IMG/VR virus record: IMGVR_UViG_3300025630_000012
Source: an uncultured virus (IMG/VR IMGVR_UViG_3300025630_000012)
Taxonomy: Duplodnaviria > Heunggongvirae > Uroviricota > Caudoviricetes
Reading direction: 5' to 3' (one strand)
DNA: 64,000 nt
Below the pieces are notes generated by a model. The model was not told the origin of the DNA, made no database searches, and saw only the letters and a list, made by a program, of their open reading frames with translations. Positions 32,502 through 53,250 of the stretch are shown here, piece by piece. The translations under genes were made by a program, and so were the position numbers. Position 1 is the first letter of the stretch. Every line of letters starts with the position of its first letter.

Positions 32502-32503
32502 TC

Positions 32504-33238: not shown

Positions 33239-33240
33239 TT

Positions 33241-33546
33241 ATGGGGAAAACAAAAGAACTTTTGATGAAAGAGTTGTCGAAAGACAAAGAGACGAACCAA
33301 CAAAAATTCGCGGTATTTCAAAATCGTATCTTCAAAAAAGAGGGGTATGTAAGCGCACTTGAAAATTTGCTGAAAGTTTCGAAGGCACAAGCCGATAAAG
33401 CCGAAACTACGGAGATTGAAAGAGCGCGGTTGTGGGTACAAATCTTCGAAGTCGAAGACAAACTAAATGCCCAACGTCAAGTTCTTTCTCAACATAGATT
33501 GTATTTGAACGAACTGAAAAGGTTGGACAATGAGCAGAATTTGTAA
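33241..33546 (+). CDS. coiled-coil hypothetical protein
   Basis: ATG at 33241. Confidence 0.7.
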   Translation: MGKTKELLMKELSKDKETNQQKFAVFQNRIFKKEGYVSALENLLKVSKAQADKAETTEIERARLWVQIFEVEDKLNAQRQVLSQHRLYLNELKRLDNEQNL

Positions 33547-34339
33547 GTTAGGAGTTGCCGTAGGAAAAAAGGGTATTGGTAAGACCTACCAAACGACCCA
33601 AATGATGAAGGAGTATGCCCGTGGTGGAAACGGCATAAAGGCTCGACGTGTTCTCATCCTTGATGTGAATGATGAGTTTGAGGAGTTCAGGGCGATGAAG
33701 ATTAAGGACATCGAGTTGTTCAGCATCCACCCCAAGATTGAAATACGTCGCATCAGACCCTTTAAGGACGATGGTACACGTATGACACTTCGTGACATCG
33801 CAGATACACTCTATCTCATTCTTGAAAAGTATCGTGGCGGTCTTCTTCTGATTGAGGACATCAACAAATACATATCAGACCACCTGCCTAACGACTTGGT
33901 TGGCGCAATATGTACAAATAGACACACCAATACCGACATTATCATGCACTTCCAAAGCATCGGAAGGATAACGTCTAAAATTTGGCAAAACCTGAATTGG
34001 ATACGATTCCACAAAAATTCAGATTCGGTAGAGAGGCATAAGAATAAGTTCCCCGACAAGATTGACCTTTTCAGCATCGTGGAAAGCATGGTCAACAAAA
34101 GATACTACGATGGTGACGTTCGATTCTTTTTGTACGTCGATGTTGATGAAGAGAAGATTTACGGCAATTACGACGAAGAACTCTTCATGTATGCGGTGGA
34201 CGAGTATTGCTCGATGAACCATCGGCACGTAGTCAAGCCCTACATCAACAAAAGGAATGAAAAAGGGAAGAAAATGTTTACTCCCGAACAAGCAATACAG
34301 GCCGCGAAGGAGTTATTCAAGAAAAACTACTACCGATAA
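33530..34339 (+). CDS. FtsK/HerA-superfamily (A32/P9-type) putative genome packaging ATPase
   Basis: Walker A GKKGIGKT, ILD, Walker B LLLIED, and NRH...HFQS motif. Confidence 0.75.
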   Translation: MSRICKLGVAVGKKGIGKTYQTTQMMKEYARGGNGIKARRVLILDVNDEFEEFRAMKIKDIELFSIHPKIEIRRIRPFKDDGTRMTLRDIADTLYLILEKYRGGLLLIEDINKYISDHLPNDLVGAICTNRHTNTDIIMHFQSIGRITSKIWQNLNWIRFHKNSDSVERHKNKFPDKIDLFSIVESMVNKRYYDGDVRFFLYVDVDEEKIYGNYDEELFMYAVDEYCSMNHRHVVKPYINKRNEKGKKMFTPEQAIQAAKELFKKNYYR

Positions 34340-34427
34340 TTCACAAAAATTCATCTCGTGTATTCTGACTTTTGAGAATTAAGAGTGAAAAAAATTAGGT
34401 TACGAATTTATTCATAAGTTTAACTAT

Positions 34428-34435
34428 TATATTTG
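34428..34435 (+). promoter_or_regulatory. Bacteroidota -7 promoter element (TATATTTG)
   Basis: Exact TAnnTTTG in an AT-rich gap before the structural operon. Confidence 0.6.
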
Positions 34436-34455
34436 CAACGAAAATCTTTGGTAAG

Positions 34456-34557
34456 ATGGACAAAAAGGAAATCAGTAAGGTGGCGTTGACCATCGTGTTT
34501 ACGGCACTTGGCGTAGCGGGCGGTATGCTCCTCTACGACCGCGTTCTTCGTAAGTAA
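34456..34557 (+). CDS. tiny single-TM protein (33 aa) preceding the capsid candidate
   Basis: Manually translated: MDKKEISKVALTIVFTALGVAGGMLLYDRVLRK. Confidence 0.75.
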   Translation: MDKKEISKVALTIVFTALGVAGGMLLYDRVLRK

Positions 34558-34671
34558 TTCGAAGCGATATAAGTTCCCCTTCGTTGGTGCGGAGATAGTG
34601 AACTTGCTTTGATGACCGAGCGACAATTTTAATTTTTCGTTTTCATTTAATCATTTAAGAAAAAAATCATC

Positions 34672-35394
34672 ATGGACTACAAGAAGTATTTCGCCCAAGC
34701 CGAGGAACAAGCCAACGAGCAGTACCTCAACTATGGTGGATACCCTGCCGTTGATGCCGATTTCGACGATTACGTGGAAGCCGCAGGTGGTTCTTACATG
34801 AACCAAACGGGTGCGATGAATGGCGGAGGTGCTCCAACCTCACAACCCTACATCATCACCATTTCTAACTCGACTACCAACGCTGTTACTTCTAACATCA
34901 TTGGTAAGGCGTTCGCTAACATTACCGCATCAGGTAACGGCATCAACACAGGTGTCACCTACACGATGGGTATTAGCGGAACAACCTACGTCGAGTTCCT
35001 TTACCAACAATTGAACAAGCCATTTATCGTAGGTTTAACCTACGTTGATGCTTCTTCACAGGCGCAAGCCTTGAAGACGTTGCAGTTGAAAGTACGGGAC
35101 ACTAATGGTAATGTTCAGGAAAGAACCATCGTTCCAACGGTAGACCCCTACCAGCAGCAGACGGACATCCTTGCAATCCGCCAATCTTGGCGTTGGGATG
35201 GCTTTACGTCTATTGCAGTTGACCTGAACGCATCAGCGTCTGCGACCTTCTACTTCTACCCATCCGAAAACGTCAACCTTACTCGTGGACTCGCGGGTCA
35301 GTCCGTGGCTCGTGGCTACGGCAACCCTAACGTCGTTCGTCAGGATAAGGTTGTACTCGGTGAAGGTGTCGCACAGGCATTGGCACAGGGCTAA
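34672..35394 (+). CDS. putative major capsid protein (beta-rich, jelly-roll candidate) with N-terminal extension
   Basis: Position after the ATPase and small TM gene; upstream promoter and own terminator; alternating beta-strand patterns; no Cys; fold inferred only. Confidence 0.55.
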   Translation: MDYKKYFAQAEEQANEQYLNYGGYPAVDADFDDYVEAAGGSYMNQTGAMNGGGAPTSQPYIITISNSTTNAVTSNIIGKAFANITASGNGINTGVTYTMGISGTTYVEFLYQQLNKPFIVGLTYVDASSQAQALKTLQLKVRDTNGNVQERTIVPTVDPYQQQTDILAIRQSWRWDGFTSIAVDLNASASATFYFYPSENVNLTRGLAGQSVARGYGNPNVVRQDKVVLGEGVAQALAQG

Positions 35395-35414
35395 TATCCT
35401 AACCAATAACACAT

Positions 35415-35457
35415 GGAGAAGGTGGCGGAAATTTTTTCGCCACCTTTTCTTATTTTT
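35415..35457 (+). terminator. rho-independent terminator after the capsid candidate
   Basis: AAGGTGGCGGAA/TTTCGCCACCTT stem with a T-rich tail. Confidence 0.85.
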
Positions 35458-35476
35458 ATAGCAAATTTTTCACGAA

Positions 35477-36055
35477 ATGAATCTTTACTCATATATCGCC
35501 TCCATGAATCCCCGCAAGGCTAATGTTCTTTTAAGGAACAACGGCTTTGGTGAGGGAAAAACAACATCTGAAATTGAGGCGCGATTAAAGCAGTATGTTA
35601 GAGAGGAGCGCGAGGAGGCAATGAGGGAGGTTGCGAAGATTCACCCCGACAAAGAACTTTTAATTGGAGATGGCGTCAACTCGGAGTTATTGAACTACAC
35701 GGGAAGAGAGCGTCACCGCAACTTCAACGGACAGGAATTTCTTCAAGACCTCGACACTACGACTTACTATGGGCCAAACGCAAATCAAAACCCATACCGC
35801 CCTATCGCACCTGACTTTTTCAATAATGCCATTGGCGTAAGTCAGCAACAATTCCCAATGAATAAATCAGCAGACGCGGGAATCACAAAAGATGACTTGA
35901 AAGAAGCCGTTAAAACTGCCGTCACCGAAGCCAAGGCAACGGAAATGTCCTCTGAACCAAAGACGGCAAGCGTATTGTCTTTCAGTCAACAAGAAGTCGT
36001 CATGATGTTGGGCTTTGCATTTTTGGGATACCTCATCGCTAAAAAAGGATTATGA
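35477..36055 (+). CDS. C-terminally anchored membrane protein
   Basis: C-terminal TM + KK; LLNYTG and HRNFNG motifs. Confidence 0.75.
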   Translation: MNLYSYIASMNPRKANVLLRNNGFGEGKTTSEIEARLKQYVREEREEAMREVAKIHPDKELLIGDGVNSELLNYTGRERHRNFNGQEFLQDLDTTTYYGPNANQNPYRPIAPDFFNNAIGVSQQQFPMNKSADAGITKDDLKEAVKTAVTEAKATEMSSEPKTASVLSFSQQEVVMMLGFAFLGYLIAKKGL

Positions 36056-36672
36056 AGAACAAAAGAGAGGCCGCGAAAGTATTGGCAAGCGTAATTGATG
36101 ACCGCACAACGGAGGTGCGCGATGCGCTATTTGATTCGGGCGTAAAAATCAGCCCAAATGCCGATAAAGATGAAATTGTTTATGCCATCCTTGAAAACCT
36201 TGGGACAAATCGTAGGCTACAAAAAAAAGTCGGAAAGTTGGCTTTGGAGGTTAGCCCTCAGTCCTTTCCCGATTTAAGAGCGCGTAGAACGAGCAGAAGA
36301 CCACAACTCGACCAAACAGGATTTTTTAATCAGTCGGGCGACGACAAGTTTTTTCAGTCCGAGGCGGGGCAACAAACCCTCGATGCCGCAGGTCAACTTG
36401 CGGGGACTCTTTTGGGCAATTTTCTTGCCAATAGACAAGCTGAAAAGCAAGCGCAGTTAGATGCGGAAACGGCAGAAAGCCAAGCACGTCTTTTACAGGC
36501 AAATGCGGAGTTGGTTAAGGCAAACCTTGCGCTTGAAAATATCAAGGCTCAACAAGCATCTATGATGACACCGACGGGCAAGATGCTGATGGGAGTCATC
36601 CTTGTCGGTGCGTTGCTTGCAGGGTTCTACTTTTACAACCAATCAAAGGGCGGTGCTACGGCAACAAACTGA
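36052..36672 (+). CDS. C-terminally anchored coiled-coil membrane protein
   Basis: FFNQSG, Gly-rich helix, coiled coil, TM. Confidence 0.75.
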   Translation: MKNKREAAKVLASVIDDRTTEVRDALFDSGVKISPNADKDEIVYAILENLGTNRRLQKKVGKLALEVSPQSFPDLRARRTSRRPQLDQTGFFNQSGDDKFFQSEAGQQTLDAAGQLAGTLLGNFLANRQAEKQAQLDAETAESQARLLQANAELVKANLALENIKAQQASMMTPTGKMLMGVILVGALLAGFYFYNQSKGGATATN

Positions 36673-36677
36673 TTCGG

Positions 36678-36962
36678 ATGGAGCAAGTAGAGGACGTAGA
36701 ATTTGAAGAGGTACAAGAGGTAGATGAGGTAGCGGAAGAGTACGATAAACTACCCAAAGAGACAAAAGAGAGCATAGCCCGCATACAAGGCAAAAAAAGG
36801 GTCTATGAGTCATCTGAAACAAGCACCTATTTATTGGGCGCGGCTTTGGGTGGCGGATATGCAGTTTACAAGCGGAAAAAAGTGCTTTTGGGAGTCGGTT
36901 TTGGCATTCTGATGGCATATTTTTATCTTGAATTTTTAGATAAACCAACAAAAGAATCATAA
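36678..36962 (+). CDS. small membrane protein
   Basis: Two short hydrophobic helices flanking KRKK. Confidence 0.72.
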   Translation: MEQVEDVEFEEVQEVDEVAEEYDKLPKETKESIARIQGKKRVYESSETSTYLLGAALGGGYAVYKRKKVLLGVGFGILMAYFYLEFLDKPTKES

Positions 36963-36966
36963 TCGA

Positions 36967-37395
36967 ATGTTGTCCGCAAATCAGTTGCATAAGCAGAGCC
37001 AATTACAAATGGATTTTCAGGATTTCCTTTCAAAGATGAAGGAAGCCTTTGGGGAAAATTTCATGGAAAAGGTGAACGAGGGTAAGGTTGCCCTTCAAGA
37101 GATTCAGTCCGCGTTAGGATTGATGGTTACACCCAAAAGTAGTGAGCAGGAAAAGCCCCAAGCACCCGTTCAGAGGCGTAGAACGGCTAATCCAACGAAG
37201 AATGTAGAACCAAAAGTTCAAGTCAAGAAAGTCACGAAGTCAGCGACGGGCGATGCAGGATTCAAACCCAAGTGTAGCAGTTGTGAGAAGAACAAAAAGA
37301 ATGCTACGGGGAAAAAGAGCAATACGATGCGTAACGTCTTGATTTTTGCAGGTATCGGGGCAGTCCTGTTTTGGGCAGTCAAAAATAGACGTTAA
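36967..37395 (+). CDS. C-terminally anchored membrane protein
   Basis: TKSATG, KKNATG, CSSC, TM + KNRR. Confidence 0.75.
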   Translation: MLSANQLHKQSQLQMDFQDFLSKMKEAFGENFMEKVNEGKVALQEIQSALGLMVTPKSSEQEKPQAPVQRRRTANPTKNVEPKVQVKKVTKSATGDAGFKPKCSSCEKNKKNATGKKSNTMRNVLIFAGIGAVLFWAVKNRR

Positions 37396-38210
37396 TGGAA
37401 GTAGAGGTATATGTAGGCAGTCAGCCCACGACTTTGGTTATCCCTATCGAAACCGCGCAGGAGCATAAAATAGGCATCCGCGTTAAGTCGGTAGAAAACC
37501 CCAACACACTTTACGTTGATAGATACAAGACAATCAACGGGAGAGTAGACATTGAGGTTGGAATGCCCATCGCGCCTGAAAAGGTAATTGTAGAGGTCTA
37601 CAATCAACCTATGGGCATGATAAGCATGAATGGGGGCTATCGTGTAGGGAAGATTATTCAGAAGCCTTTGCAGGATATGCCTCAGTGTATCAATTACTCA
37701 AATCCGAAAATTAAGTCAGCACTACCCTTTTTTACCAAATTCTCCGCGATTGCAGGATTTGCTGATGCGGGCGACAAAGTGTATTACGACAAAACTTTCG
37801 AATTTGTAATTGTCTACAAGGACTCTATTCCCGAAGCGATGGAGACGCCCGCTCGTATCCACGCGCAGAAGGGATTTATTGAAGTGAGTGCCGAATACTT
37901 CCGTCGCTACACCATACCGATGCGTATGGCAGTTTTGCTTCACGAATTTTCACACTTTTGGCTTAACCGAGATATAGATAGCGAAATAGAAGCCGATTTG
38001 AATGGTCTTGCGCTATACCTGTCGTTAGGATACCCTCGAATTTCTGCATTTAATTCTTTCGTAAAAGTATTTATGAATGCACCTACCGCGCAGAACCACG
38101 AGAGAATGGAAATAATAAAGAAATTTATTAGTAATTTTGATTCAGGCAATCCCCCGTCATTTGGGCAACCTTTGGCGGCCTTGACCCCACAATGTCAAAA
38201 TAAAGTTTGA
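37395..38210 (+). CDS. zincin metalloprotease, candidate virion maturation protease
   Basis: AVLLHEFSH followed by EIEAD (third ligand). Confidence 0.75.
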   Translation: MEVEVYVGSQPTTLVIPIETAQEHKIGIRVKSVENPNTLYVDRYKTINGRVDIEVGMPIAPEKVIVEVYNQPMGMISMNGGYRVGKIIQKPLQDMPQCINYSNPKIKSALPFFTKFSAIAGFADAGDKVYYDKTFEFVIVYKDSIPEAMETPARIHAQKGFIEVSAEYFRRYTIPMRMAVLLHEFSHFWLNRDIDSEIEADLNGLALYLSLGYPRISAFNSFVKVFMNAPTAQNHERMEIIKKFISNFDSGNPPSFGQPLAALTPQCQNKV

Positions 38211-39301
38211 TGTCTTTTAAGCACAATACAGGTGATTCTTTTCTACCCTCGGTAGACCCGTTTGGAGGTCGCGGTGAAAGTGGTGGTTTGAATCATGGAG
38301 GTCAGTACGATGTAGAGTACATCGTTGAGAACTTAAACAAGGGAACACGCACACCCAATGCTACGGCACGTCCGACTGCAAATCGCGCAGTAAGAAGAAA
38401 GAGCGCGAAGGCGGGTCAGCGTCCCTTTATGAGAAGTACGCCTCCTGTGGCTACCCCCAAGCCGACGAAGCAAGAAATTGCCCGTATGAAGTCCGCTACG
38501 GGCGTTGATGACGTTAGCGTTGATAACGAGGATTTCGTCAATGTTTCGGGCGCGAAAAAGAAAGAGATTGAACGCGGATTAGCGGACTACACTTGTTGGA
38601 GAGTTTGGGATGGCGGTGGTCAGAATTGCGCCTCACACGCACGATGGGAATTGCAACAAGGACGTTGCAACTCGCCCGTAGTTTCAGTAGCCAAGCAACG
38701 CCTTGAAGCCTGTACGCGAGCGCAGGGGAATCCCGATGACGTAGCCAAGTGTACGAAAGGGCGTGTGAACTACCAAGACAATGCTTTTTCTGACAAGAAA
38801 GGTAGGCGCGAGCACGTTCAAGGAACTGCAAAAAATTGGTTGGCAGACCTTGAAAGTGAGGTCGATGCTTGTTTGTTAAAACAACAAATGGGTGGAAATG
38901 GCGGTGGAAATACCATCTATGGTTGCATGGATGAGGATGCCTTAAACTACGACCCTACCGCAACCTTCAATCGTGGTTGTGAATATGCCGACGAAAGCGA
39001 TGACGTGGATGGCGGTTTCGACGACAATAGTTCTAACATGAACGCCAAATTGGATGAACTTTTTGAGCGATTGGGTAGCCTTGAATTTGGCAACGCTCCA
39101 TCGGGCGGTGGTGTCCCAACGCCTTCTGATAGCTATGCTTATGACTACGACTATGCACAATCGTCGGTTGGAGGTTCAAGCATGAATCCCCTTCTCATTG
39201 GTGGAATTGTCTTGGTTGTGGGGTTGGCTATTTTTATGATTAACCAACCAAAAAAGGTAGCTATGCCACAAGTTGCCCCAAGAGTTGCTCCAACTGCATA
39301 A
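38210..39301 (+). CDS. C-terminally anchored Cys-containing protein
   Basis: MKSATG, FVNVSG, one GCMD..NY..C repeat, TM. Confidence 0.75.
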   Translation: MSFKHNTGDSFLPSVDPFGGRGESGGLNHGGQYDVEYIVENLNKGTRTPNATARPTANRAVRRKSAKAGQRPFMRSTPPVATPKPTKQEIARMKSATGVDDVSVDNEDFVNVSGAKKKEIERGLADYTCWRVWDGGGQNCASHARWELQQGRCNSPVVSVAKQRLEACTRAQGNPDDVAKCTKGRVNYQDNAFSDKKGRREHVQGTAKNWLADLESEVDACLLKQQMGGNGGGNTIYGCMDEDALNYDPTATFNRGCEYADESDDVDGGFDDNSSNMNAKLDELFERLGSLEFGNAPSGGGVPTPSDSYAYDYDYAQSSVGGSSMNPLLIGGIVLVVGLAIFMINQPKKVAMPQVAPRVAPTA

Positions 39302-39302
39302 C

Positions 39303-39965
39303 ATGAGTTTTAACCAAACAATTGACCAAAGCGTATGGGATAGTTTGATGAGTCAAACGGCATCCCAAAAATCTTCGTCACAAACCAATAAGGTAAAGAA
39401 GTTTACGGGCGGAGACGCATACAAAAATGCAGACGGCAATTGGGTTAGAGCCAAATTCAAAGCCCCCATCCGCGATGCGGTAAAGGACATGATTGGTTTT
39501 TGGCAACACAAGGAAGGAAGCGTAAATTGCTCTGCCTTGGATGCCTCAATAAGCAAGGGAAATAGCCTTTTGAGCCTTCATTCATCAGACAAGAATGCTT
39601 TTAATCAAGCCGTGGAAGATGCTTGGACATCGCCCGTTAAAAGGGATGCCAAGATAACCAATCAAAGGGGCAAGTACGCGGCTCAAATGATGGAGCAGTA
39701 CACCGATGAACTCCAAAGAAAGCGGGACTCTCAATGTAGGGTTAGCGGAGATAAAGAGTTGGACTACGCCCAAAAGGATTTGGACTCTTCGTATGGGAAC
39801 TTGGGATATACCCCGCCTAACATGAACTATCAGCCGACACAGGCAGGTTTTGGTGGTGGAAACACCATGATATACTTAACCCTTGGGGCTATTGCCTTGG
39901 CGGGAATTATGATTATCAAAGCCCGCTCACCACAACCAACCCCTACAACTTACGTCAATGGCTAA
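39303..39965 (+). CDS. C-terminally anchored membrane protein
   Basis: VKKFTG, YKNADG, TM. Confidence 0.75.
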   Translation: MSFNQTIDQSVWDSLMSQTASQKSSSQTNKVKKFTGGDAYKNADGNWVRAKFKAPIRDAVKDMIGFWQHKEGSVNCSALDASISKGNSLLSLHSSDKNAFNQAVEDAWTSPVKRDAKITNQRGKYAAQMMEQYTDELQRKRDSQCRVSGDKELDYAQKDLDSSYGNLGYTPPNMNYQPTQAGFGGGNTMIYLTLGAIALAGIMIIKARSPQPTPTTYVNG

Positions 39966-40281
39966 TAGAGATATTTTTGGGTTCGCACCATCATCACATT
40001 CGGGATTCAAGAAGGCCACGGGTTCTAAATGCGATTGCATTTGCAAGGATGGCGTAAAGTACGAGAAGGCTTGCGATTGGGACGAGTGGGCGATGTGCGA
40101 TTGTTGTGTTGGTTTTTGTGCGGGTAAAGACACCGATGTCTTTTCAAGAGCCACGGGAGGCAGAAAATGCCGTTGCCACCCCAACTGCGACAACCTCGCT
40201 TACAACTCGCCCGAATGCGAAAAATGTTGTTACGACAACGAAACAAAAGGTTTCAAAAGTGCTTGTGGTTGCGGGGCATGA
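39958..40281 (+). CDS. Cys-rich small protein (16 Cys) segmented by repeated motifs
   Basis: FKKATG, FSRATG, FKSACG. Confidence 0.75.
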   Translation: MANRDIFGFAPSSHSGFKKATGSKCDCICKDGVKYEKACDWDEWAMCDCCVGFCAGKDTDVFSRATGGRKCRCHPNCDNLAYNSPECEKCCYDNETKGFKSACGCGA

Positions 40282-40415
40282 GTAAAGAACCAAAAATCAC
40301 ACGATGGCAACAGGCAAGGCGATACCTTGTCGATAGAAAACGAATCAATGAGATAAAGGTGAGCAGATTGAAATGGAATCTGCAAAAGATTTTAGACAAG
40401 AGCGGTGAGGGATAA
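40278..40415 (+). CDS. small basic protein
   Basis: ATGA coupling; terminator overlaps the stop. Confidence 0.5.
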   Translation: MSKEPKITRWQQARRYLVDRKRINEIKVSRLKWNLQKILDKSGEG

Positions 40416-40428
40416 CCCACCGCTTTTT
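40399..40428 (+). terminator. rho-independent terminator
   Basis: AGCGGTG/CACCGCT stem + T5. Confidence 0.7.
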
Positions 40429-40532
40429 GCATTGTAAAAAACGCGGAAACACTAAAAATTATTTCCGTATTTTTATTGGCAAATTTGGCATGAAGTATTT
40501 CAGCCGACGATTATCGAAACAACACAAATACA

Positions 40533-40757
40533 ATGGCAAAGAACAACGCAATTTTTGGCTTTAAGAGCGCGAGCGGAAGAGGCGGTTATAGAAACCAAAC
40601 AGGTGGCGGAGATTATTGGTACACCTTGGGAAGACAGGCGGCAGAGGCCGCGTTTGCACAAGGTGGCGTCAATGGTTTGTTGGCATTCCTCGCAGGTTTT
40701 AACGCATCTGATTATAGCTACGGAGGCGCAGGGGACTTATTGGACACCTTGAACTGA
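40533..40757 (+). CDS. small Gly/Ala-rich protein
   Basis: IFGFKSASG, YRNQTG; N-terminus resembles that of 39958. Confidence 0.72.
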   Translation: MAKNNAIFGFKSASGRGGYRNQTGGGDYWYTLGRQAAEAAFAQGGVNGLLAFLAGFNASDYSYGGAGDLLDTLN

Positions 40758-40805
40758 TATTAACGAGAAAAAAATCTCGTTTTATCACCTTTTCACCATT
40801 AAGCA

Positions 40806-41309
40806 ATGTCGCTCCTTTCAAACAACAAAACGCCAAGCTACTCCATAGCGCAACAACAATGCCTTGCTATACCCAATAGAGGTAGTCAGGCAAGTAAGTG
40901 GATGGCGTGGCATCAGAGTTTGAAGGCTTGCTTTGGTAGGTCAGGAGCGAATGCTTTGTGGATGGAGGCTTGGGATAGGTACGGAAGAGGCACATCAGTT
41001 TCTACAAGCACCCAACTTCTAACCTACATGAGAAGCCAAGGGGTTGACATCTCACAAGGAGCGGGAGAGTCGTTAAGTATCTTCGGTAGCGATGTAGCAA
41101 GTTTCTTCGGAGGCTATATCAACTTCTCCAAATACGTCGGAATGGCACTTGCGGGCGGTATCGCAATAGGCTTTTTGATGCTTCTCTACAACATCATTAT
41201 GAACCCTGCAAAGGCGAAACAAAGCCTCGGTGTCATCACCGAAGGGGCTATGATGGCAACGCCACAAGGTCGTGTCGCATCGGTTGCAACAAAATCCATA
41301 GGGCAATGA
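40806..41309 (+). CDS. membrane protein
   Basis: Trp-rich N-domain, TM near the C-terminus. Confidence 0.75.
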   Translation: MSLLSNNKTPSYSIAQQQCLAIPNRGSQASKWMAWHQSLKACFGRSGANALWMEAWDRYGRGTSVSTSTQLLTYMRSQGVDISQGAGESLSIFGSDVASFFGGYINFSKYVGMALAGGIAIGFLMLLYNIIMNPAKAKQSLGVITEGAMMATPQGRVASVATKSIGQ

Positions 41310-41722
41310 ACGAGAAAAGAGTAAGAGGAATCTTGATAGGCTCTGCCCTCGTGTTGGGTGGCGTTGCTATGTATGGCGTTCATCGCAAAAAGAAGTCCGC
41401 ATACATCGCAGTTCAAAACAAAATACGAGGTATAGCCGTTGGCACGGGAGTGGGGTACAACCCTGATTCTTCGACTTTTAACGCACAACAAATCTCCGAA
41501 GCACTTTATGATGCAGGAGAAGGAAGGTGGGGAACTGACGAGCAAGAAATTTTTGCAATTTTAGAGCGAATAGCAGATTCCCAAAATCCGCAAGGTGTAT
41601 GGATTCAGGTTGTCAACGCTTATCAATCGAAGTACAACAGACAACTTGTTGGCGATTTGAGAGATGAGATGTCAGGTAGCGATTTAACTAAACTAACCAC
41701 ATTATTAGCCCGATTGTCGTGA
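41306..41722 (+). CDS. N-anchored annexin-repeat protein
   Basis: ALYDAGEGRWGTDEQEIFAIL...YQSKYNRQLVGDLRDEMSG. Confidence 0.8.
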   Translation: MNEKRVRGILIGSALVLGGVAMYGVHRKKKSAYIAVQNKIRGIAVGTGVGYNPDSSTFNAQQISEALYDAGEGRWGTDEQEIFAILERIADSQNPQGVWIQVVNAYQSKYNRQLVGDLRDEMSGSDLTKLTTLLARLS

Positions 41723-42327
41723 AAGAAGATTTACCACTCATATTAGGAGGATTAGCGGTAGGAGCAGTCGTAGTATGGTATTTGACCAAGCCCGACTCTA
41801 CCAAGTCAAGACCTGTTCCCGAAGGGAGAGAAGAAGATTTGGGTTCAGGAGTTGTGGCATTAGGTGCGCCTACACAAGTCATTCAAGGTCAAGCAGGAAC
41901 TCAACCGAGCGTTCAAACCACAAATACGACGACAACGCAACAACCTGCATCCCCCCCTCCACCTTACGCCTTGGTAAATATCAACCCCGCATTCCAAGGC
42001 ACAACTGCCTACAACGATATGTTTGGCGGGTGTGACTTCCCTCTACTGCCCGATACGGAAAGTGTATGCGTGAAGCGTTTGCAAGATGCCTTTGATGTAA
42101 CCCAAACAGGGGTCTTTGATGAGCCTACGCAAGTGGCACTCGACCAATACATAGAAAAACTTCCCAATAGGACGGATGGGCACTTCGGGGGGTTCACACG
42201 AGAGGGGTGTATTGGATTTGACCCCATCTCGAATAAGACAACTAACGTCTGCGGACTTAACCACGACCAATACCTTGAAATTCTCTTCAAAATGGGGATT
42301 CCATTAACTGAAACTTACGATGCGTAA
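41719..42327 (+). CDS. N-anchored protein with a peptidoglycan-binding-like motif
   Basis: VKRLQDAFDVTQTGVFDEPTQVAL. Confidence 0.6.
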   Translation: MKEDLPLILGGLAVGAVVVWYLTKPDSTKSRPVPEGREEDLGSGVVALGAPTQVIQGQAGTQPSVQTTNTTTTQQPASPPPPYALVNINPAFQGTTAYNDMFGGCDFPLLPDTESVCVKRLQDAFDVTQTGVFDEPTQVALDQYIEKLPNRTDGHFGGFTREGCIGFDPISNKTTNVCGLNHDQYLEILFKMGIPLTETYDA

Positions 42328-42877
42328 AGAGTACAAAAATTTTATGGGAGACCGCTCCTCTATGTCCGTGGACTTGGACTTGGAGAGAACGGATGATTTT
42401 GTGAACCAAGTCGCGTATAACCCTGATGGTTTATTTGACTTTTTGGATGATGAAGACATCAAAATTACCCCATTAGGCACAAGCAATGGCGTTTTAGATA
42501 GTGACGGAGATGGTATTCCCGATATGATTGACATTGACGCGGGTAGTGGTACAGGAAAGCCCACAACGACTCCTTCTGCACCTGCACCGCGAGCCAATAA
42601 AGGCCAAGGTCTTGGCACGTTTGCTTCGGGATTGGCAAAAGGCTTGGGTCTCATCAATAGGGGCGCAACGCCACCACCACCCGTAGGCGATAGTCAGCCC
42701 GTCACCGACACCGCAGGATTCACAAACGAAGGCAGAAATATGGTTATACCATTGTTGGTTGGCGGTATTGCCGTTTTGGTTGTGTTTTTAGCCATAAGTG
42801 GCATGAAAAAATCAGGCGGTTCACCGCAGGTGTCTGTCTCCACTCCTTCACCCTCAAATAGCAACCCTAACGCATGA
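42320..42877 (+). CDS. C-anchored membrane protein with a Ca-binding-like loop
   Basis: YKNFMG; DSDGDGIPDMID; TM. Confidence 0.72.
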   Translation: MRKEYKNFMGDRSSMSVDLDLERTDDFVNQVAYNPDGLFDFLDDEDIKITPLGTSNGVLDSDGDGIPDMIDIDAGSGTGKPTTTPSAPAPRANKGQGLGTFASGLAKGLGLINRGATPPPPVGDSQPVTDTAGFTNEGRNMVIPLLVGGIAVLVVFLAISGMKKSGGSPQVSVSTPSPSNSNPNA

Positions 42878-43386
42878 ACAGAGCGCAGATATTCGCTCTT
42901 GTAGCCCTCGTTGGATTGTCAATAGGGCTATACTCGTATGTCCAAAAGCAAACAAAGCGTTTGTACATGATGGACTACGAATTTGAAAATGTTAGAGTTG
43001 CGGGAATAGGCAAAGAAGCCGTGACACTATCATTTGAGTTGGTTCTTGAAAACACAAGTGACCTCGATGTCAAAATTTACAATGTGGATTTCAAGGTATT
43101 ATGGAACAATACGCAGGTGGGTAAGGTCAATTCTCGCCAAGCCTACATTGTCCCAAAGCGCAGTACAAAGGTCGTCCCGCTTACGCTTACACTCTCTCGA
43201 AATGAGATGAATGAGGCGATTCGTGATGCCTTTTCGAGTTTACAGAGTTTCGTTAGTGGAGTAATCAAAATTCAGGGGTCGATGGATGTCGGTGCTGATG
43301 TCATTAAAATCAGCAATTTTCCCTTTGATTACGAAGTGCCCGCTTCTAATTTAGTCGGAAATTCAATTCAATCCGTAATTCAGTAA
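42874..43386 (+). CDS. LEA_2/WHy-domain membrane protein
   Basis: N-terminal TM; LVLENTSDLDVKI..VDFKVLWN..VG. Confidence 0.75.
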   Translation: MNRAQIFALVALVGLSIGLYSYVQKQTKRLYMMDYEFENVRVAGIGKEAVTLSFELVLENTSDLDVKIYNVDFKVLWNNTQVGKVNSRQAYIVPKRSTKVVPLTLTLSRNEMNEAIRDAFSSLQSFVSGVIKIQGSMDVGADVIKISNFPFDYEVPASNLVGNSIQSVIQ

Positions 43387-43389
43387 GCT

Positions 43390-43803
43390 ATGAACGAAAT
43401 CGTTAAGAACATCGCAATGAGCGAAACCAAGTCGGTCTTCAAAAAGGCACTCGTAAATTTTGCCGACAAGAATGAAATCGACTGCAAAAGCAATCAGCTT
43501 TTAATCCGCTCCAACAAAGAGGGTGAACCATACTACACTTACTGCATTGACTTTGCAGAAAAAAAGCGTATAACCTTCAACGAAGTTCTTGGTGTAAAGG
43601 TCGATTTCAAAAATCGTGAGGCTATCGCAAGCCCATTTATCACAAAGACGATTTCACGTTTGAGCGAAGAGCACAAGTGCGAAAATGACGATGTGAAAAT
43701 CTATGCTTGCACATTTGACGAAAAAGCAAAGGACGTTTTTCTCTTCGGATATATTAAAAATCAAAAAATCGGACAAATAAGTTTCGATTGGTTATTCAGC
43801 TAA
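43390..43803 (+). CDS. hypothetical protein
   Basis: 137-aa ORF. Confidence 0.75.
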   Translation: MNEIVKNIAMSETKSVFKKALVNFADKNEIDCKSNQLLIRSNKEGEPYYTYCIDFAEKKRITFNEVLGVKVDFKNREAIASPFITKTISRLSEEHKCENDDVKIYACTFDEKAKDVFLFGYIKNQKIGQISFDWLFS

Positions 43804-43807
43804 AAAC

Positions 43808-44107
43808 ATGGCGATAGAAATTTTAGGCAACGAGATTTTCACCCAAACACTCACGGGTAGTGGCGGGTCAGAGGTTCTTTCCATCACGGAAGCCGATGGC
43901 GTGGGTATCATAAGTGTGCTTTGTACGAGTGCTACGTCAGGTACAATTTTGGGGAATGCAACAATTGACGGCAAAGCCTCCGAAGCAATTTCTGTCGCAC
44001 AAAACAATTCAATCACAATTTCAGCAACTTCGGGCAAGACACTCGGTACTTTGACCATCACCGCGCCCGATGGTTGTACACTTTTGGTCGTAGCAAATCA
44101 GGGATAA
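43808..44107 (+). CDS. small all-beta protein (penton/vertex candidate)
   Basis: 99 aa, T/S/I/G-rich beta-strand pattern; role inferred. Confidence 0.5.
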   Translation: MAIEILGNEIFTQTLTGSGGSEVLSITEADGVGIISVLCTSATSGTILGNATIDGKASEAISVAQNNSITISATSGKTLGTLTITAPDGCTLLVVANQG

Positions 44108-44436
44108 TGACAAAACAAGCATTGAGAAGCAACTTAATTGGCGTGGTAGCGGTATCGCTATCCTTTGCCCTTGGCATCACGCTATATCAAGCCTTTTTGG
44201 TGGCTGACTTGGCTGATTTAGAGGACTCGACGGAAAGAAAAAGCGCACCCAAGCCCACCCCCAAGCCCGCACCTAAATTTTCGGGAGGTAGCACCCCCGC
44301 ACCAAAGCGTCGTAGCGCGATGAAAGAGTTTAGCGGTCATGGGCAAGCAGTTTCAGACAACGTACCCGACAACGAAAAAGTTAATTCTAACAAGCAACTT
44401 ATCCAAAAGGCGAAATCGTCTGAAATGCTCACTTGA
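44107..44436 (+). CDS. N-anchored membrane protein
   Basis: TM, PKP repeats, MKEFSG. Confidence 0.72.
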   Translation: MTKQALRSNLIGVVAVSLSFALGITLYQAFLVADLADLEDSTERKSAPKPTPKPAPKFSGGSTPAPKRRSAMKEFSGHGQAVSDNVPDNEKVNSNKQLIQKAKSSEMLT

Positions 44437-44438
44437 TT

Positions 44439-47165
44439 ATGAAGGGAAAAAATAAAAAGATTTTAATAGCAACAATCGCGGCTTTGGCTTCGGGGGGCAT
44501 TCTTTATGCCGTTCGTAAAAAGCAATCTGATGGGGAAGATAAATCCCTTGATGGAGATGAGCCGATTGTTCCGCCAATTCCGACTTCTATTTATGACGGA
44601 GAGCCTGTTGATGACGACTTTGGTGGCGGTGGCGTAGGTGATGACGAGGTTGTTGATGACGACTTTGGTGGAGGCGGAGGTGGTGGTAGTATCAATGCAG
44701 TTTTATGCCGTGGATTGGATGAGAATGGAGCGGAGATAGCTGATTTAGTCAATCAAGGCGAAGAGTGTCCTGCCAATACGCCATTTGGCCCTGACGACGA
44801 CATTGCATTCGACGATTACGTGTATGACGCATATCGGTGCTTTGATGTTGACGAAAATAATCAGATTGTCGAAGTAGAAAAAGAATTTACGGAGGTATGC
44901 GGGGTTGATTATCCCGACCACCCATTTAATACATTAAGCGACGCTCTTCTTTATGCAGAAAATCCCTCGGAATTTGAGGGTTGTACGGATGAAACGGCAT
45001 CGAATTATGATTCAGAGGCATTGTTTGACGATGGTTCTTGCGAATATGAAGCAGAACCCGTTTTGGGTTGTACAAACCCCGATGCTCTCAACTATGACGA
45101 CACGGCAACCGAAGATGACGGCACGTGTGAGTTTGATGAAGAGGTGGTAGCGGGTTGCATGAATCCTGATGCTCAAAACTATAACGACCAAGCAACAACG
45201 GACGATGGTACTTGCATTTTTGATGTTACGTGCTTCTATCTTGCAGATGGTGGCGAAGTATTAGAGCAAAATTTTGAATTACAGGCAGGGGAAACCTGTT
45301 GGGAAAGCGTAGATGCGTATATGTCTCCATCGCTCCCGACATTGCGCCTTGGTTACTTCGATACTTTCGAGTCAGCAGAGGCTTACGCCCAAGGAGTCAG
45401 CAGTTGGGATGATGATGTTGTCGTATGCTTGATGGTTGATGAAACGCTCCCATATCCCGAAAGCATCTATGAGGAGACGTTACCTGACCCCGAAACACAA
45501 TCGTGTGTTGATATTGGGGGTTTTGACCCTAACGCAACATCGGATGAGGCTATGGAGTTGGTTGCTACTCAAATGCACAATGAATGGCTTGCGAGCCAAG
45601 AGGTATTGGGATGCACCGACGAAACGGCCACGAACTTTATGCCCGATGCTACGGCAGATGACGGGTCATGTCAATACGCACCTACTACGCAGAATTGTAC
45701 TTGGCATGATGCACAATGCAATCCCGTAAGTGTTCCTAACCTACCTGTTGAAGTAGATGGCGTTGCAGTTACCTGCACGGATTTGGGATATGTTGAATTT
45801 GGCGATGAGCAAACCGCTATCGACTTCTGCGAGGCAAACGTAGCCTTGGCTACGATGTCTTGCTACTCTTATGATAGCGATGGCGTATTTATTTTAGAAG
45901 ATATAGATGCTATTGACCTTAATACAGGTGAGGCAAAGACCTGTACATCTTTGGGGTATTTCGAAATGAACCCTTCGGGTCTTGCTGATGCCACCTCCGC
46001 CTATCAAGCAGAGTTTGCTGATAGCAAGGTTGGATGTACTGACCCAAGCGCAACAAACTATGACCCAACCGCAATTACGGATGACGGCAGTTGTATCCTT
46101 CCCGAAGTGCCTATGCCAAGCGGAATCATTGATGCTGAATACGTCACAACAAATTGGTTTAATGACTGCGCTCAAACCGATGCAACGACTACCGATATTC
46201 TAACTCTACCTATACAATCAGGAGAGTGGGGTAGTGGTTTCTTCATTTCTGATGTGAATAGTATCATCGGATACGAGTGTTACGACGCGCAAGGAGAGCC
46301 TACGGGTACACCACCTCCACTTGTTTACGGGTGTACCGACCCTGATGCCTTGAACTACGATGCTACGGCTAATCAGAATGACGGAACGTGTGAGTATCCT
46401 GTCGCAAATGTCGAGGGTTGTACTGACTCATTGGCAATAAACTACAACCCTGATGCGACCTTGGAAAATGGTGCGTGTGAATATGGCATTGAATTTACAA
46501 GTTCTACGCCCGCAGACCTTACGCAGTTGAGTACCTGTGGTTCAGTTTCCGTGAGCCTTGCAAATCAAATCAATACAAGTGATGGCTCAGTTGGAGCGGT
46601 GAACTATATTTTGGGTCAGGCTTGTTTCGACCCCGCCACAGGCAATAGCGTTTATTACACGCCACCCGCAGAGAATGAAATCACTACGGCTACTGATGCA
46701 CAAAACATTTTGCTTGCGTGTTACGGCGGGACATCATTTGAGCCAAGCGTGGTTTTTGAAATAAATGGATTATCATATCCAATAACTGCGGCTGAATTTA
46801 ATTCAACAATTGGTTGGAATTGTTTAGACCCTGACACAGGCGAGGTGGTTCAAGTTTTAACTGATGGCGGTGGCGATACTAATGCTCTTGCGAGAAACTC
46901 TGACAAGAGCCTTAATACGGGTGACTTTGACACCTCGGAGTTTGACAATGATATTTTAGGTAGTGCAGGTGAACCCCCATCTACGATGGTTGGTGACACT
47001 ACGACTACAACGGAATTAAGTAATCAAAAATCCTTAATTTCGTCTACTGAAAAAACCACAAAAAATTTTGGCGGTAATTCGTCAAGTACGGGCGGGTGTT
47101 TAGACCCCATAGCCCTGAACTTTGATGAAGGCGCAGAATTTGACAACGGGTCTTGCATCTACTGA
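44439..47165 (+). CDS. N-anchored acidic Cys-rich repeat protein
   Basis: 8 GCT/M/L-D/N..N(Y/F)...DG.C repeats. Confidence 0.85.
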   Translation: MKGKNKKILIATIAALASGGILYAVRKKQSDGEDKSLDGDEPIVPPIPTSIYDGEPVDDDFGGGGVGDDEVVDDDFGGGGGGGSINAVLCRGLDENGAEIADLVNQGEECPANTPFGPDDDIAFDDYVYDAYRCFDVDENNQIVEVEKEFTEVCGVDYPDHPFNTLSDALLYAENPSEFEGCTDETASNYDSEALFDDGSCEYEAEPVLGCTNPDALNYDDTATEDDGTCEFDEEVVAGCMNPDAQNYNDQATTDDGTCIFDVTCFYLADGGEVLEQNFELQAGETCWESVDAYMSPSLPTLRLGYFDTFESAEAYAQGVSSWDDDVVVCLMVDETLPYPESIYEETLPDPETQSCVDIGGFDPNATSDEAMELVATQMHNEWLASQEVLGCTDETATNFMPDATADDGSCQYAPTTQNCTWHDAQCNPVSVPNLPVEVDGVAVTCTDLGYVEFGDEQTAIDFCEANVALATMSCYSYDSDGVFILEDIDAIDLNTGEAKTCTSLGYFEMNPSGLADATSAYQAEFADSKVGCTDPSATNYDPTAITDDGSCILPEVPMPSGIIDAEYVTTNWFNDCAQTDATTTDILTLPIQSGEWGSGFFISDVNSIIGYECYDAQGEPTGTPPPLVYGCTDPDALNYDATANQNDGTCEYPVANVEGCTDSLAINYNPDATLENGACEYGIEFTSSTPADLTQLSTCGSVSVSLANQINTSDGSVGAVNYILGQACFDPATGNSVYYTPPAENEITTATDAQNILLACYGGTSFEPSVVFEINGLSYPITAAEFNSTIGWNCLDPDTGEVVQVLTDGGGDTNALARNSDKSLNTGDFDTSEFDNDILGSAGEPPSTMVGDTTTTTELSNQKSLISSTEKTTKNFGGNSSSTGGCLDPIALNFDEGAEFDNGSCIY

Positions 47166-47169
47166 TACA

Positions 47170-53238: not shown

Positions 53239-53250
53239 TTCTGCTTAAAA

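Follow-up and report, generated by a model that had tools for sequence, protein, structure and literature searches.

A membrane-anchored single annexin repeat encoded in an apparent particle-membrane gene block of an uncultured phage

The stretch of DNA analysed here, which we call the window, comprises 64,000 nucleotides of an uncultured virus (IMG/VR IMGVR_UViG_3300025630_000012) and covers 64 kb of a 102,007-bp contig. It includes a small gene that an initial annotation, made from the sequence alone, had described as a single annexin repeat behind an N-terminal transmembrane segment (Table 1). The reading frame is as described there, with an ATG at 41306, a stop codon that ends at 41722 and a product of 138 aa, and the peptides quoted for it, A70-G-E-G-R-W-G-T-D-E79 and D117-L-R-D-E121-M-S-G124, occur in its translation. 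The ATG overlaps the stop codon of the upstream gene (ATGA), and the stop codon in turn shares bases with the GTG of the next gene (GTGA). About 15 genes for single-helix membrane proteins lie around the annexin gene in a conserved row. Gene order in this row is preserved in five metagenome loci (L002-L006), where the annexin gene keeps its place in every case (5/5) and is flanked throughout by the same genes directly 5′ and 3′.

Table 1. Features of the annexin locus: feature, position in the window, strand and basis of the assignment.
Membrane-anchored single-repeat annexin gene, 138 aa	41306..41722	+	ORF listing, sequence
Hydrophobic anchor helix, residues 8-26	41327..41383	+	Kyte-Doolittle mean 1.64 over 19 residues
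Basic cluster R27-K-K-K30, then linker to residue 57	41384..41476	+	Charge count, low pLDDT
Annexin repeat, residues 58-138, five predicted helices	41477..41719	+	Pfam, PDB sequence matches, AlphaFold2, Foldseek, VIA-align
A-B loop of the type II calcium site, G71-E-G-R-W-G-T-D-E79, including Trp75	41516..41542	+	Alignment to annexin VI repeat 3
Codon for E121, acidic cap (D-E-M-S-G)	41666..41668	+	Alignment with the E of E-L-S/T-G in annexin structures
Same-strand gene row, mostly one-hydrophobic-helix proteins, includes the annexin gene	35477..53238	+	Hydropathy scan
5′ neighbour (167 aa) with a single hydrophobic helix, residues 109-133	40806..41309	+	Hydropathy
Downstream neighbour (202 aa) with a helix at the N terminus, a low-complexity linker and a 4-Cys C-terminal domain	41719..42327	+	
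Anchored LEA_2-like protein, 170 aa	42874..43386	+	Pfam LEA_2 E 2.7e-5, 25.0 bits, just below the 25.4 cut-off
Conserved HExxH protein, 271 aa, within the row	37395..38210	+	H-E-F-S-H motif; weak PhageMetallopep match, E 0.006
P-loop ATPase, 269 aa, candidate genome-packaging ATPase	33530..34339	+	Walker A G-K-K-G-I-G-K-T, L-L-L-I-E-D motif
Jelly-roll-like protein, 240 aa, candidate major capsid protein	34672..35394	+	Conservation, model, weak structural match
16-pair hairpin and T-run just 3′ of the capsid-candidate gene	35415..35450	+	Terminator-like scan

A HMMER comparison with the annexin profile PF00191 scored 29.4 bits (cut-off 25; E 8.3e-7) over residues 67-125, and when the PDB sequences were searched with phmmer all 46 matches were annexins, the top one being annexin VI (E 1.1e-17). 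AlphaFold2 predicted five helices (residues 60-72, 79-90, 95-110, 114-121 and 124-137), with a block pLDDT of 71-89 over residues 61-138. When this model was searched against the PDB with Foldseek, the best 24 of the 47 rows listed were solved annexins and the remainder were annexins or annexin-A2 fusion constructs; all rows carried a probability of 1.00, with none reaching an E-value of 0.001. Alignment of the model with annexins by VIA-align gave Z scores of 11-12 and an rmsd of 1.5-2.2 Å over 72-77 residues (for the top example, 7zvn_A, Z 11.8 and 1.5 Å over 72 residues), and the isolated domain 1 of annexin I (1bo9) was covered over 73 of its 73 residues (Z 9.9, rmsd 1.8 Å). In a fold search of BFVD, the best row was no better than E 0.23. 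Judged by sequence matches and predicted fold together, the protein carries one complete and genuine annexin repeat, with a match that lies far beyond chance. The four-repeat disc of classical annexins is absent from this 138-aa protein, which holds a single repeat only, and an annexin profile search found no second repeat among the ORFs of the window.

Annexins are textbook calcium-dependent lipid binders of eukaryotes and are best known from animal cells. The window protein shares the five-helix repeat fold with them in its model, especially with repeat 3 of A5, A6 and A7 (Z 11-12), and its A-G-E-x-(K/R)-W-G-T-D-E loop lines up, position by position, with annexin VI repeat 3 (A-G-E-L-K-W-G-T-D-E in the PDB sequence alignment) and with annexin A7. 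In both the eukaryotic annexins and the window protein the acidic cap lies within E-(L/M)-S-G. The window protein differs in that it has one repeat in place of a four-repeat disc, carries a membrane anchor and has an insertion of about six residues (S-Q-N-P-Q-G) between helices B and C. The GxGTDE loop and distal acidic cap named in the initial annotation are both there, as G73-R-W-G76-T77-D78-E79 and E121, and at the level of sequence the calcium-site residues align with their counterparts in annexins VI and A7. From these alignments we conclude that a type II calcium site, made up of the G-x-W-G-T-D-E loop and the cap E121, is retained. The loop tryptophan of plant and some bacterial annexins is thought to touch the bilayer, and a loop tryptophan (Trp75) is kept in the window protein.

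The calcium loop and the cap are also the best-conserved columns of the viral family. Among 33 non-redundant viral relatives, G76 and T77 are each kept in 27, D78 in 25 and E79 in 22, while position 121 is acidic in 32 of the 33 (E in 26 and D in six), with E121 invariant in a six-sequence alignment (A1). Position 75 is tryptophan in 10 of the 33 and is otherwise mostly another hydrophobic residue. In L003, which carries an allele 86% identical to the window gene, the A-B loop is unchanged. Over residues 49-138 this allele differs by 20 non-synonymous and 5 synonymous changes (omega 1.17), as compared with 7 non-synonymous and 26 synonymous changes in four neighbouring genes pooled (Fisher p 1.3e-5 versus the annexin gene), and none of 19 replacements falls in residues 67-79 or 116-124. 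The substitution pattern is consistent with a module constrained mainly where it contacts lipid and calcium; relaxed constraint on a dispensable gene could also give an omega close to 1.

These data bear on whether the annexin fold has instead been reused as a calcium-independent protein-binding or spacer domain, in which case the conservation of the motif would be inherited and not functional. The loop does vary, reading E-G-T-T-D-E in one relative (P0049) and Y-T-W-G-T-D-K in another (L024), and Kodavali et al. (PMC3894181) describe bacterial annexins as conserving the cap glutamate less well. A protein-binding surface whose metal site had decayed should, however, show the opposite of the pattern seen here, where loop and cap are the most conserved elements and the rest is free to vary, and we regard such reuse as very unlikely.

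The survey of Kodavali et al. 2014 (PMC3894181), in the portions available, found about thirty bacterial annexin homologues and none in viruses, and it reports that some bacterial annexins have predicted transmembrane regions, an added membrane-anchor domain that eukaryotic annexins lack. The single- or few-repeat annexins of Cytophaga hutchinsonii, Flavobacteriia and other bacteria described there resemble the window protein in having a stand-alone repeat with a GxGTD loop, and several share with it the tryptophan of G-W-G-T-D. By single-domain score, the closest repeats from outside the viral family carry E-G-W-G-T-D-E ... L-R-D-E-M-S-G-S-(D/E)-L, again like the window protein. Unlike the bacterial annexins, the window protein is virus-encoded within a conserved block beside a capsid candidate, and it consists of just 138 aa without another domain. 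Full-text literature searches gave no paper on viral or phage annexins among the hits listed.

The N-terminal transmembrane segment proposed in the initial annotation corresponds to hydrophobic residues 8-26, followed by R-K-K-K. A segment with a hydropathy score of at least 1.5 occurs at the same place in 29 of the 33 viral family members, and G12, L15 and G24 of the helix are invariant in alignment A1. A linker of about 30 residues separates the basic cluster from the annexin repeat, and AlphaFold2 assigned residues 1-56 a pLDDT below 50. The C-terminal side of the anchor is flanked by six basic and no acidic residues, versus three basic and one acidic on the N-terminal side. This charge bias would put the annexin domain of the window protein on the cytoplasmic face; across the 33 relatives the C-side flank is more basic in 14, tied in 14 and less basic in five, so the family as a whole gives no clear topology.

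The genes next to the annexin gene are less readily named. For the upstream protein, Pfam and PHROGs gave no family match. The gene that follows the annexin gene at the equivalent position in L017 and L023 encodes a PG_binding_1 protein (28.7 and 23.6 bits, respectively). On account of its position and domain layout we considered the downstream neighbour as a peptidoglycan binder, but rejected the idea, as neither Pfam nor a custom profile matches it and the analogy is one of position only; the custom wall-binding profile was itself set aside after iteration, when it matched 68 ORFs, probably via the anchor region. The initial annotation had also pointed to a DxDGDG calcium-binding-like loop in the nearby protein at 42320, for which Pfam yields no family. 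Its D-S-D-G-D-G-I-P-D-M-I-D does fit D-x-D-x-D-G-x-x-D-x-x-D, but the motif is lost in all except near-identical relatives, and for that reason the remark adds little. The structural core of the initial reading stands: one annexin repeat preceded by an N-terminal anchor, its calcium loop and acidic cap intact. Further along the row, the LEA_2 family recurs in the equivalent row of G001, L017, L023, L043 and L074, and the HExxH protein is 82% identical in L006 and 36% identical in G001. A PAP2 lipid phosphatase gene lies 5′ of the block (28605-29282) and is conserved, G001 included.

The candidate genome-packaging ATPase is 91% identical in L006 and 50% identical in G001. Among the Atlas clusters related to it, DUF87 is found in 17-20% of members and Zot in 13-14%, and when its profile was compared with solved PDB structures the P-loop was the sole matching part. 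The capsid candidate has at least 323 homologues and is 92% identical in L006, a degree of conservation seen between viruses with annexins just 36% identical to each other. Its model contains a beta core (a sandwich) at residues 60-197 with a block pLDDT of 79-95. The top structural matches of this model are viral jelly rolls, including chains of PR772, FLiP, PM2 and PRD1, at Z 4.3-6.2, the best of which is below the value of about 8 recommended by the structure-comparison tool. No Foldseek row for the candidate reached E 0.001 or better, nothing was matched in Pfam, PHROGs, or PDB sequences and profiles, and its score by Atlas features was only 0.84. The order of ATPase, capsid candidate and single-helix row is preserved in L006, and G001 keeps its outline.

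Searches with Pfam and PHROGs detected no terminase, portal, HK97-type capsid or tail family among the ORFs of the scanned window, and Pfam detected no tailed-phage structural families in a 102,228-bp relative rated 100% complete. The annexin gene stands in a row with small membrane proteins beside capsid- and ATPase-candidate genes, as in PRD1/PM2-type phages, where small single-helix protein genes likewise lie beside capsid and ATPase genes. Gene content and, weakly, the capsid model make it plausible, if only indirectly, that the annexin gene belongs to a phage with a virion membrane, apparently tailless. No sequence similarity to internal-membrane phages was detected, SSIP-1 having been compared directly by hmmsearch, blastp and hhalign, and the genome of the window virus is about 100 kb versus 43.8 kb for SSIP-1, a cultured membrane phage. 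The capsid-candidate gene is covered by contigs from four salt-marsh metatranscriptome runs, which end at 35385-35478, and a 281-nt RNA-library contig (depth 3.3) extends over 41126-41406 and with it the opening 100 bases of the annexin gene. We do not read these contigs as proof of expression, because strand and level are not shown and DNA may be present in the libraries; stretches lacking coverage are uninformative.

Full-length relatives of the annexin protein are 96% (P0001), 86% (P0002), 49% (P0004), 38% (P0049) and 35% (P0091) identical to it, and the block is shared by related virus records of 100-102 kb. Related loci were reached through the capsid candidate and not through the annexin pattern. 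Counting only IMG/VR loci with at least 8 kb downstream, 17 of 59 hold a small anchored annexin ORF, on the same strand and 2.4-8.7 kb downstream of the capsid candidate. A family profile detects the anchored annexin gene in 32 of 73 related loci, in several instances adjacent to a gene for an anchored peptidoglycan binder, and the Pfam annexin profile scores above its cut-off in L017, in L023 and twice in L072. The gene is missing or unrecognisable in 41 of the 73 loci and in the complete relative G001, and the lineage can therefore do without it. In some relatives holin genes (Phage_holin_4_1 in L072 and L032) also stand later in this row, and L032 encodes a glucosaminidase with a C-terminal anchor and without a signal peptide. 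Outside these loci, direct annexin pattern scans of IMG/VR gave no match, nor did tblastn of the annexin, capsid candidate, ATPase and a 671-aa protein against 50,697 phage records, or megablast of window positions 30000-50000 against phage records, and no cultured relative came to light; cluster annotations of the viral families read "hypothetical protein" only. A scan of a genome collection for annexins returned a single match, an unrelated annexin of a Myxococcales MAG, which offers no clue to the host.

Entry of PM2 is reported to be calcium-dependent. In the available portions of PMC6356626 and PMC13552765, the membrane of internal-membrane phages is described as a DNA-delivery device, with a membrane tube in PRD1 and fusion with the outer membrane in PM2 (PMC6356626), and those portions do not name an annexin domain for PRD1/PM2-type phages. 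Relatives of the window virus, like internal-membrane phages, appear to tether wall-binding and wall-cutting activities to the membrane. We propose, with a probability of roughly 0.4, that the annexin protein is a component of the virion membrane that binds anionic lipids when it meets external calcium, and in this way aids docking or fusion with the host envelope. A single N-terminal helix would hold the protein in the lipid membrane that apparently lines this large, seemingly tailless phage, with one annexin repeat displayed on a flexible tether of about 30 residues. During particle building in the host cytoplasm the domain would be off, because calcium is scarce there. Upon exposure to millimolar calcium, whether in fresh, estuarine or marsh water or in the periplasm of the next host, it would bind anionic phospholipid head groups; with its anchor in the viral membrane, the bound protein would connect that membrane to one of the host. 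Such a connection would assist docking and fusion as the DNA is delivered, or penetration through a membrane tube, and the annexin would act beside the anchored peptidoglycan-binding and -cleaving proteins for which related viruses carry genes in the equivalent row. A broader claim, that annexins are a recurrent working part of phage membranes and that a calcium-switched, tethered annexin lets the viral membrane of a widespread, tailless-type phage lineage of about 100 kb seize host membranes and merge with them, is one we consider doubtful.

The gene context would serve equally well for a protein that acts in cis at assembly, anchored in the inner membrane of the host or in a viral membrane still forming, with the domain folding onto its own bilayer, where it would gather anionic lipids and bend or stiffen the future patch of viral membrane. 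Membrane bending at assembly was among the roles suggested in the initial annotation. A tether of about 30 residues is short and favours reaching the membrane in which the protein is anchored, and the conserved PAP2 lipid phosphatase gene hints at manipulation of lipids by the virus. Assembly, however, is a cytoplasmic step, at which free calcium is very low, and for this reason a calcium site under such strict conservation would then find little use. Rapid evolution of the surface speaks against tight packing on the highly conserved capsid candidate, and many relatives are without a recognisable annexin gene. An assembly role is possible, though we hold it with little conviction.

Inner-membrane spanin subunits likewise consist of an N-terminal anchor followed by a soluble domain. 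The likeness raises the prospect of a host-envelope factor outside the virion, which might link inner and outer membranes in a spanin-like way after the wall is cut, or seal the host membrane as an exclusion or repair factor. The holin and glucosaminidase genes in the same row of relatives would suit such a factor, and annexins have been described as bridging and repairing membranes. In the window, however, the endolysin-type gene (63789-63998) is 22 kb from the annexin gene, Pfam and PHROGs detect no holin or lysis family among the flanking genes, and the annexin gene travels with the capsid-candidate block and not with the endolysin. A tether of this length falls well short of the periplasm's width, and the charge bias of the window protein would place the domain on the cytoplasmic face. 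A function of this kind is, in our view, unlikely.

How the membrane of tailless membrane phages comes to engage the host envelope has been worked out in very few model systems, and the annexin gene provides a concrete candidate with a putative calcium switch; if calcium-dependent docking or fusion is indeed its role, no virus would have furnished an annexin-based entry factor before. An abundant, uncultured lineage of phages conserves a gene for this minimal annexin, which consists of one repeat and an anchor, and the gene lies in an apparent particle-membrane block. For protein biochemistry, it offers a natural minimal system for the behaviour of a single annexin repeat on a bilayer.

The finding also adds viruses to the question of annexin-repeat origins. 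Should the broader claim hold true, phages would become plausible carriers of annexin repeats from one bacterium to another, and perhaps further afield. A quick tree of 103 annexin domains leaves both the single origin of the viral repeats and their sister group unsettled: as drawn, the viral label needs six changes, and the well-supported branches alone allow a single origin.

Translation of the ORF listing confirmed the annexin gene, called in the initial annotation, as one reading frame, and the N-terminal transmembrane segment proposed there is borne out by hydropathy (see table). At its 5' end the gene overlaps the stop codon of its upstream neighbor (ATGA), and at its 3' end it shares GTGA with the GTG start of the next gene, suggesting one operon with translational coupling. 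The charges flanking the hydrophobic helix favor the cytoplasmic face of the membrane (6 basic and 0 acidic residues versus 3 basic and 1 acidic); the same bias is present in only 14 of 33 viral relatives, with ties in 14. Were the particle internally membraned, that face would end up on the outside of the viral membrane, toward the capsid. The protein could act in cis, shaping the nascent viral membrane or sorting its lipids, which we consider possible but on balance unlikely.

Features of the annexin gene and protein, with other loci discussed in the text (residues numbered as in the window protein; conservation counted over 33 non-redundant viral family members)
Feature	Location	Strand	Detail
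Annexin gene	ATG at 41306, stop ends 41722	+	138 aa, one ORF
Hydrophobic helix	residues 8-26		Kyte-Doolittle mean 1.64
Basic cluster R-K-K-K	between hydrophobic helix and linker
Linker			unstructured or extended in AlphaFold2 model; pLDDT <50 across residues 1-56
Five-helix domain	~residue 58 to C-terminus
AlphaFold2 helices	residues 60-72, 79-90, 95-110, 114-121, 124-137
G76			conserved 27/33
T77			conserved 27/33
D78			conserved 25/33
E79			conserved 22/33
L114			conserved 31/33
E121			E in 26/33, D in 6
Local hot spot of amino-acid change	window 41306-41719; L003 1587-2000		annexin domain; flanking genes 98-100% identical
Three anchored single-repeat annexin genes	L072 13319-15118		two adjoin, third beyond one other gene
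Giant 'polyvalent'-type protein	window 15892-23601		2569 aa, SNF2/helicase; methyltransferase-family PHROG match
'Polyvalent'-type large-gene run	G001 19419-45526		Zeta_toxin, ART-PolyVal, LPD11, DUF2958 domains
PAP2-family lipid phosphatase gene	window 28605-29282; G001 52896-53543		conserved few genes upstream of ATPase/capsid-candidate block
33-aa ORF	window 34456-34557		one hydrophobic helix; in 332-base ATPase/capsid-candidate gap
Terminator-like hairpin	35415-35450		16 pairs and T-run
Cysteine-framed module, many copies	window 38207-39301, 44433-47165, 47122-53238; L006 7598-8767
Start of amidase-type endolysin gene	window 63789-63998		far end, truncated at window edge; phrog_822, E 3e-24

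Pfam PF00191, the HMMER comparison that the initial annotation had proposed, matches residues 67-125 with 29.4 bits (E 8.3e-7), above the curated cut-off of 25. A phmmer search against all PDB sequences gave 46 matches, every one an annexin, with annexin VI at the top at E 1.1e-17, a value that sums over its repeats (one repeat alone scores 15-20 bits). The loop A-G-E-G-R-W-G-T-D-E aligned with A-G-E-L-K-W-G-T-D-E of annexin VI repeat 3 and D-E-M-S-G with the E-L-S-G cap motif of PDB annexins, in agreement with the loop and acidic cap first read from the sequence. Structure prediction, also proposed at the outset, gave an annexin fold: the AlphaFold2 model, built from only 6 input sequences, has a mean pLDDT of 64.5, with averages of 71-89 in the 10-residue blocks between residue 61 and the C-terminus. 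A Foldseek search of the PDB ranks annexins in its best 24 rows, and the other listed rows (47 in all) are annexins or annexin-A2 fusion constructs; the probability is 1.00 throughout, with E-values of only 7e-3 and weaker, as is usual for a domain of 80 residues. VIA-align gave Z 11-12 against solved annexins (7zvn_A: Z 11.8, rmsd 1.5 Å, 72 residues) and Z 9.9 with an rmsd of 1.8 Å against isolated annexin I domain 1 (1bo9), aligning 73/73 of its residues. An annexin profile search found no second repeat among the window's ORFs. By each sequence and fold criterion tested, the domain belongs to the annexin family; classical annexins have four repeats, and the window protein, with one, falls outside the classical class.

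Among the viral family members, G76, T77, D78, E79 and E121 are among the most conserved columns, so it is the calcium-site signature that selection maintains. Position 75 is Trp in 10/33 and mostly another hydrophobic residue in the others. Judged by sequence, the protein carries one annexin repeat on a membrane anchor, its calcium-site signature intact and selectively conserved. That it serves as a calcium-independent scaffold strikes us as very improbable.

The annexin gene lies within a conserved block of genes for small membrane proteins beside the capsid candidate, a 240-aa protein encoded at 34672-35394 (+). We hypothesize, with a probability of roughly 40%, that calcium triggers lipid binding at entry. 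The block would code for the protein components of a lipid membrane in the virus, and the annexin domain would be off during assembly in the calcium-poor cytoplasm. Outside the cell, in the water, or in the periplasm of the next host, lipid binding would then be switched on, and the viral membrane would thereby be tied to host phospholipid, beside tethered wall-binding and wall-cutting domains. Near-identical DNA comes from runs labeled as freshwater, estuary, salt marsh and aquatic metagenomes, settings where calcium is far above that of the cytoplasm. Passages in the literature describe two routes of membrane-phage entry, the membrane tube of PRD1 and the fusion of PM2 with the outer membrane, and the title of a cited work gives PM2 entry as calcium-dependent (PMC6356626, PMC13552765). 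The proposed mechanism would fit both routes. Anchored bacterial annexins are known, and the relevant passages of a 2014 survey of annexins report none in viruses (PMC3894181). None of the papers listed by full-text literature searches dealt with annexins of viruses or phages, and a phage annexin is apparently not in print.

Genes of the window lie nearly all on one strand and include phage-type genes (Phg_2220_C/replication initiation, HTH, PDDEXK nuclease, SSB, RusA, methyltransferase and tRNA-Gln). Pfam and PHROGs scans of the window found no terminase, portal, HK97-type capsid or tail families, and Pfam found none of these in the 108 ORFs of G001, a 102,228-bp relative rated 100% complete; relatives of 100-102 kb are likewise rated complete. 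The core common to the window and G001 comprises the PAP2 phosphatase, the ATPase (50%), the capsid candidate (39%), small membrane proteins, an HExxH protein (36%) and an anchored LEA_2-like protein. At least 323 homologues of the capsid candidate exist, none with a name or Pfam family. It models as a beta sandwich (block pLDDT 79-95, residues 61-200) whose best structural neighbors are jelly rolls, many viral capsid proteins among them; chains of PR772, phiCjT23, FLiP, PBCV-1, Faustovirus, PM2 and PRD1 are included, with only Z 4.3-6.2, under the level that the alignment tool calls reliable, and Foldseek with this model gave no row at E 0.001. The ATPase has Walker A and B motifs, DUF87 or Zot occurs in 13-20% of members of its related Atlas clusters, and its profile matches solved structures only in the P-loop. 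The cultured membrane phage SSIP-1 showed no detectable similarity, and tblastn of the annexin, capsid candidate and ATPase against 50,697 phage records found no cultured relative. The putative tailless, membrane-lined virion type is read from weak fold matches and from the missing tailed-phage families. The virus looks unusual: its genome is ~100 kb and encodes a P-loop ATPase, ~15 single-helix proteins and a small jelly-roll-like protein (window 33530-53238; G001). Four salt-marsh RNA libraries yielded contigs of ~1 kb that span the capsid-candidate gene (region 34600-35478) and end at 35385-35478, at the hairpin directly 3' of that gene; contigs and hairpin together are hints of its expression.

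A search of 1.84 billion representatives with the annexin protein gave 409 proteins at E <=0.001. The 150 matches listed are mostly long multi-repeat annexins, and four of them are full-length look-alikes of ~140 aa (P0001 96%, P0004 49%, P0049 38%, P0091 35%). A metagenome scan placed the window at bases 3194-67193 of a 102,007-bp contig and gave five related loci, all five with the annexin gene between the same two neighbors. Relative to one of them, L006, identity is 92% for the capsid candidate, 49-62% for the annexin's flanking genes and only 36% for the annexin itself, which thus ranks among the fastest-evolving in the block. In the comparison with L003, which carries an 86%-identical allele, residues 49-138 have 20 non-synonymous changes against 5 synonymous (omega 1.17, not significantly >1, p 0.5), residues 1-48 have 0 and 1, and four neighboring genes pooled have 7 and 26 (Fisher p 1.3e-5 versus the annexin domain). 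None of 19 replacements falls in residues 67-79 or 116-124, and 9 alter charge (net -6). Against L002, another of the five, omega is 0.33 and the contrast to the neighbors is not significant (p 0.08).

We also fetched 73 IMG/VR loci via the capsid candidate (31-43% identity; contigs 7-102 kb) and searched them with a profile of the annexin domain drawn from both cellular and viral repeats. An anchored small annexin ORF was present in 17 of the 59 loci reaching >=8 kb downstream of the capsid candidate, each with an N-terminal hydrophobic helix and on the same strand, 2.4-8.7 kb 3' of that gene. A viral-family profile, which takes in the anchor region, matches 32/73; Pfam annexin independently exceeds its cut-off in L017, L023 and 2 of the 3 tandem copies in L072. 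The gene is not universal in the lineage, the viral-family profile finding none in 41/73 loci or in the complete G001. In another phage-like contig, of 113 kb, sigma-factor-like and ligase-like genes lie near a gene (L011 9329-10771) for a 480-aa protein that has a single annexin-type loop, E-G-W-G-T-D-E-D, and lacks an N-terminal anchor.

In L017 and L023 an anchored PG_binding_1 protein is encoded directly 3' of the annexin gene (28.7 and 23.6 bits, cut-off 23). The glucosaminidase of L032 (97 bits) is anchored at its C-terminus and lacks a signal peptide, and the PG_binding_1 match in L032 just 5' of an annexin-like gene is weak (20.5 bits, cut-off 23). These wall-binding proteins are built like the annexin, with a short basic N-terminus, helix, basic cluster, linker and domain. 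The window protein in the matching position (41719-42327) has the same build and four cysteines; Pfam and our own wall-binding profile detected no PG_binding_1 similarity in it. LEA_2 recurs a few genes past the annexin gene in relatives, and in L072 and L032 the row has holin genes close to its end. Holins in the same row would suit a spanin-like or protective annexin at the envelope of the infected cell, but the endolysin gene is 22 kb from the annexin gene and the annexin tether is short, and we regard such a role as quite unlikely.

Elsewhere in the row we saw by eye a ~25-residue cysteine-framed module, G-C-T-D-x-x-A-x-N-Y-x-x-x-A-x-x-D-D-G-S-C-x-Y, for which no family was found; its carriers are anchored proteins of 910 and 2038 aa (36 and 121 cysteines) and smaller row proteins. 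The DxDGDG loop reported initially in a nearby protein (42320-42877) is present at residues 60-71 as D-S-D-G-D-G-I-P-D-M-I-D, but is kept only in the related loci L001-L003. It matches D-x-D-x-D-G-x-x-D-x-x-D, which we take to be the calcium-binding pattern of thrombospondin type 3 repeats. In L033, L034, L036, L041 and L066 the same pattern occurs in a different protein of 378-381 aa, encoded upstream of the capsid candidate.
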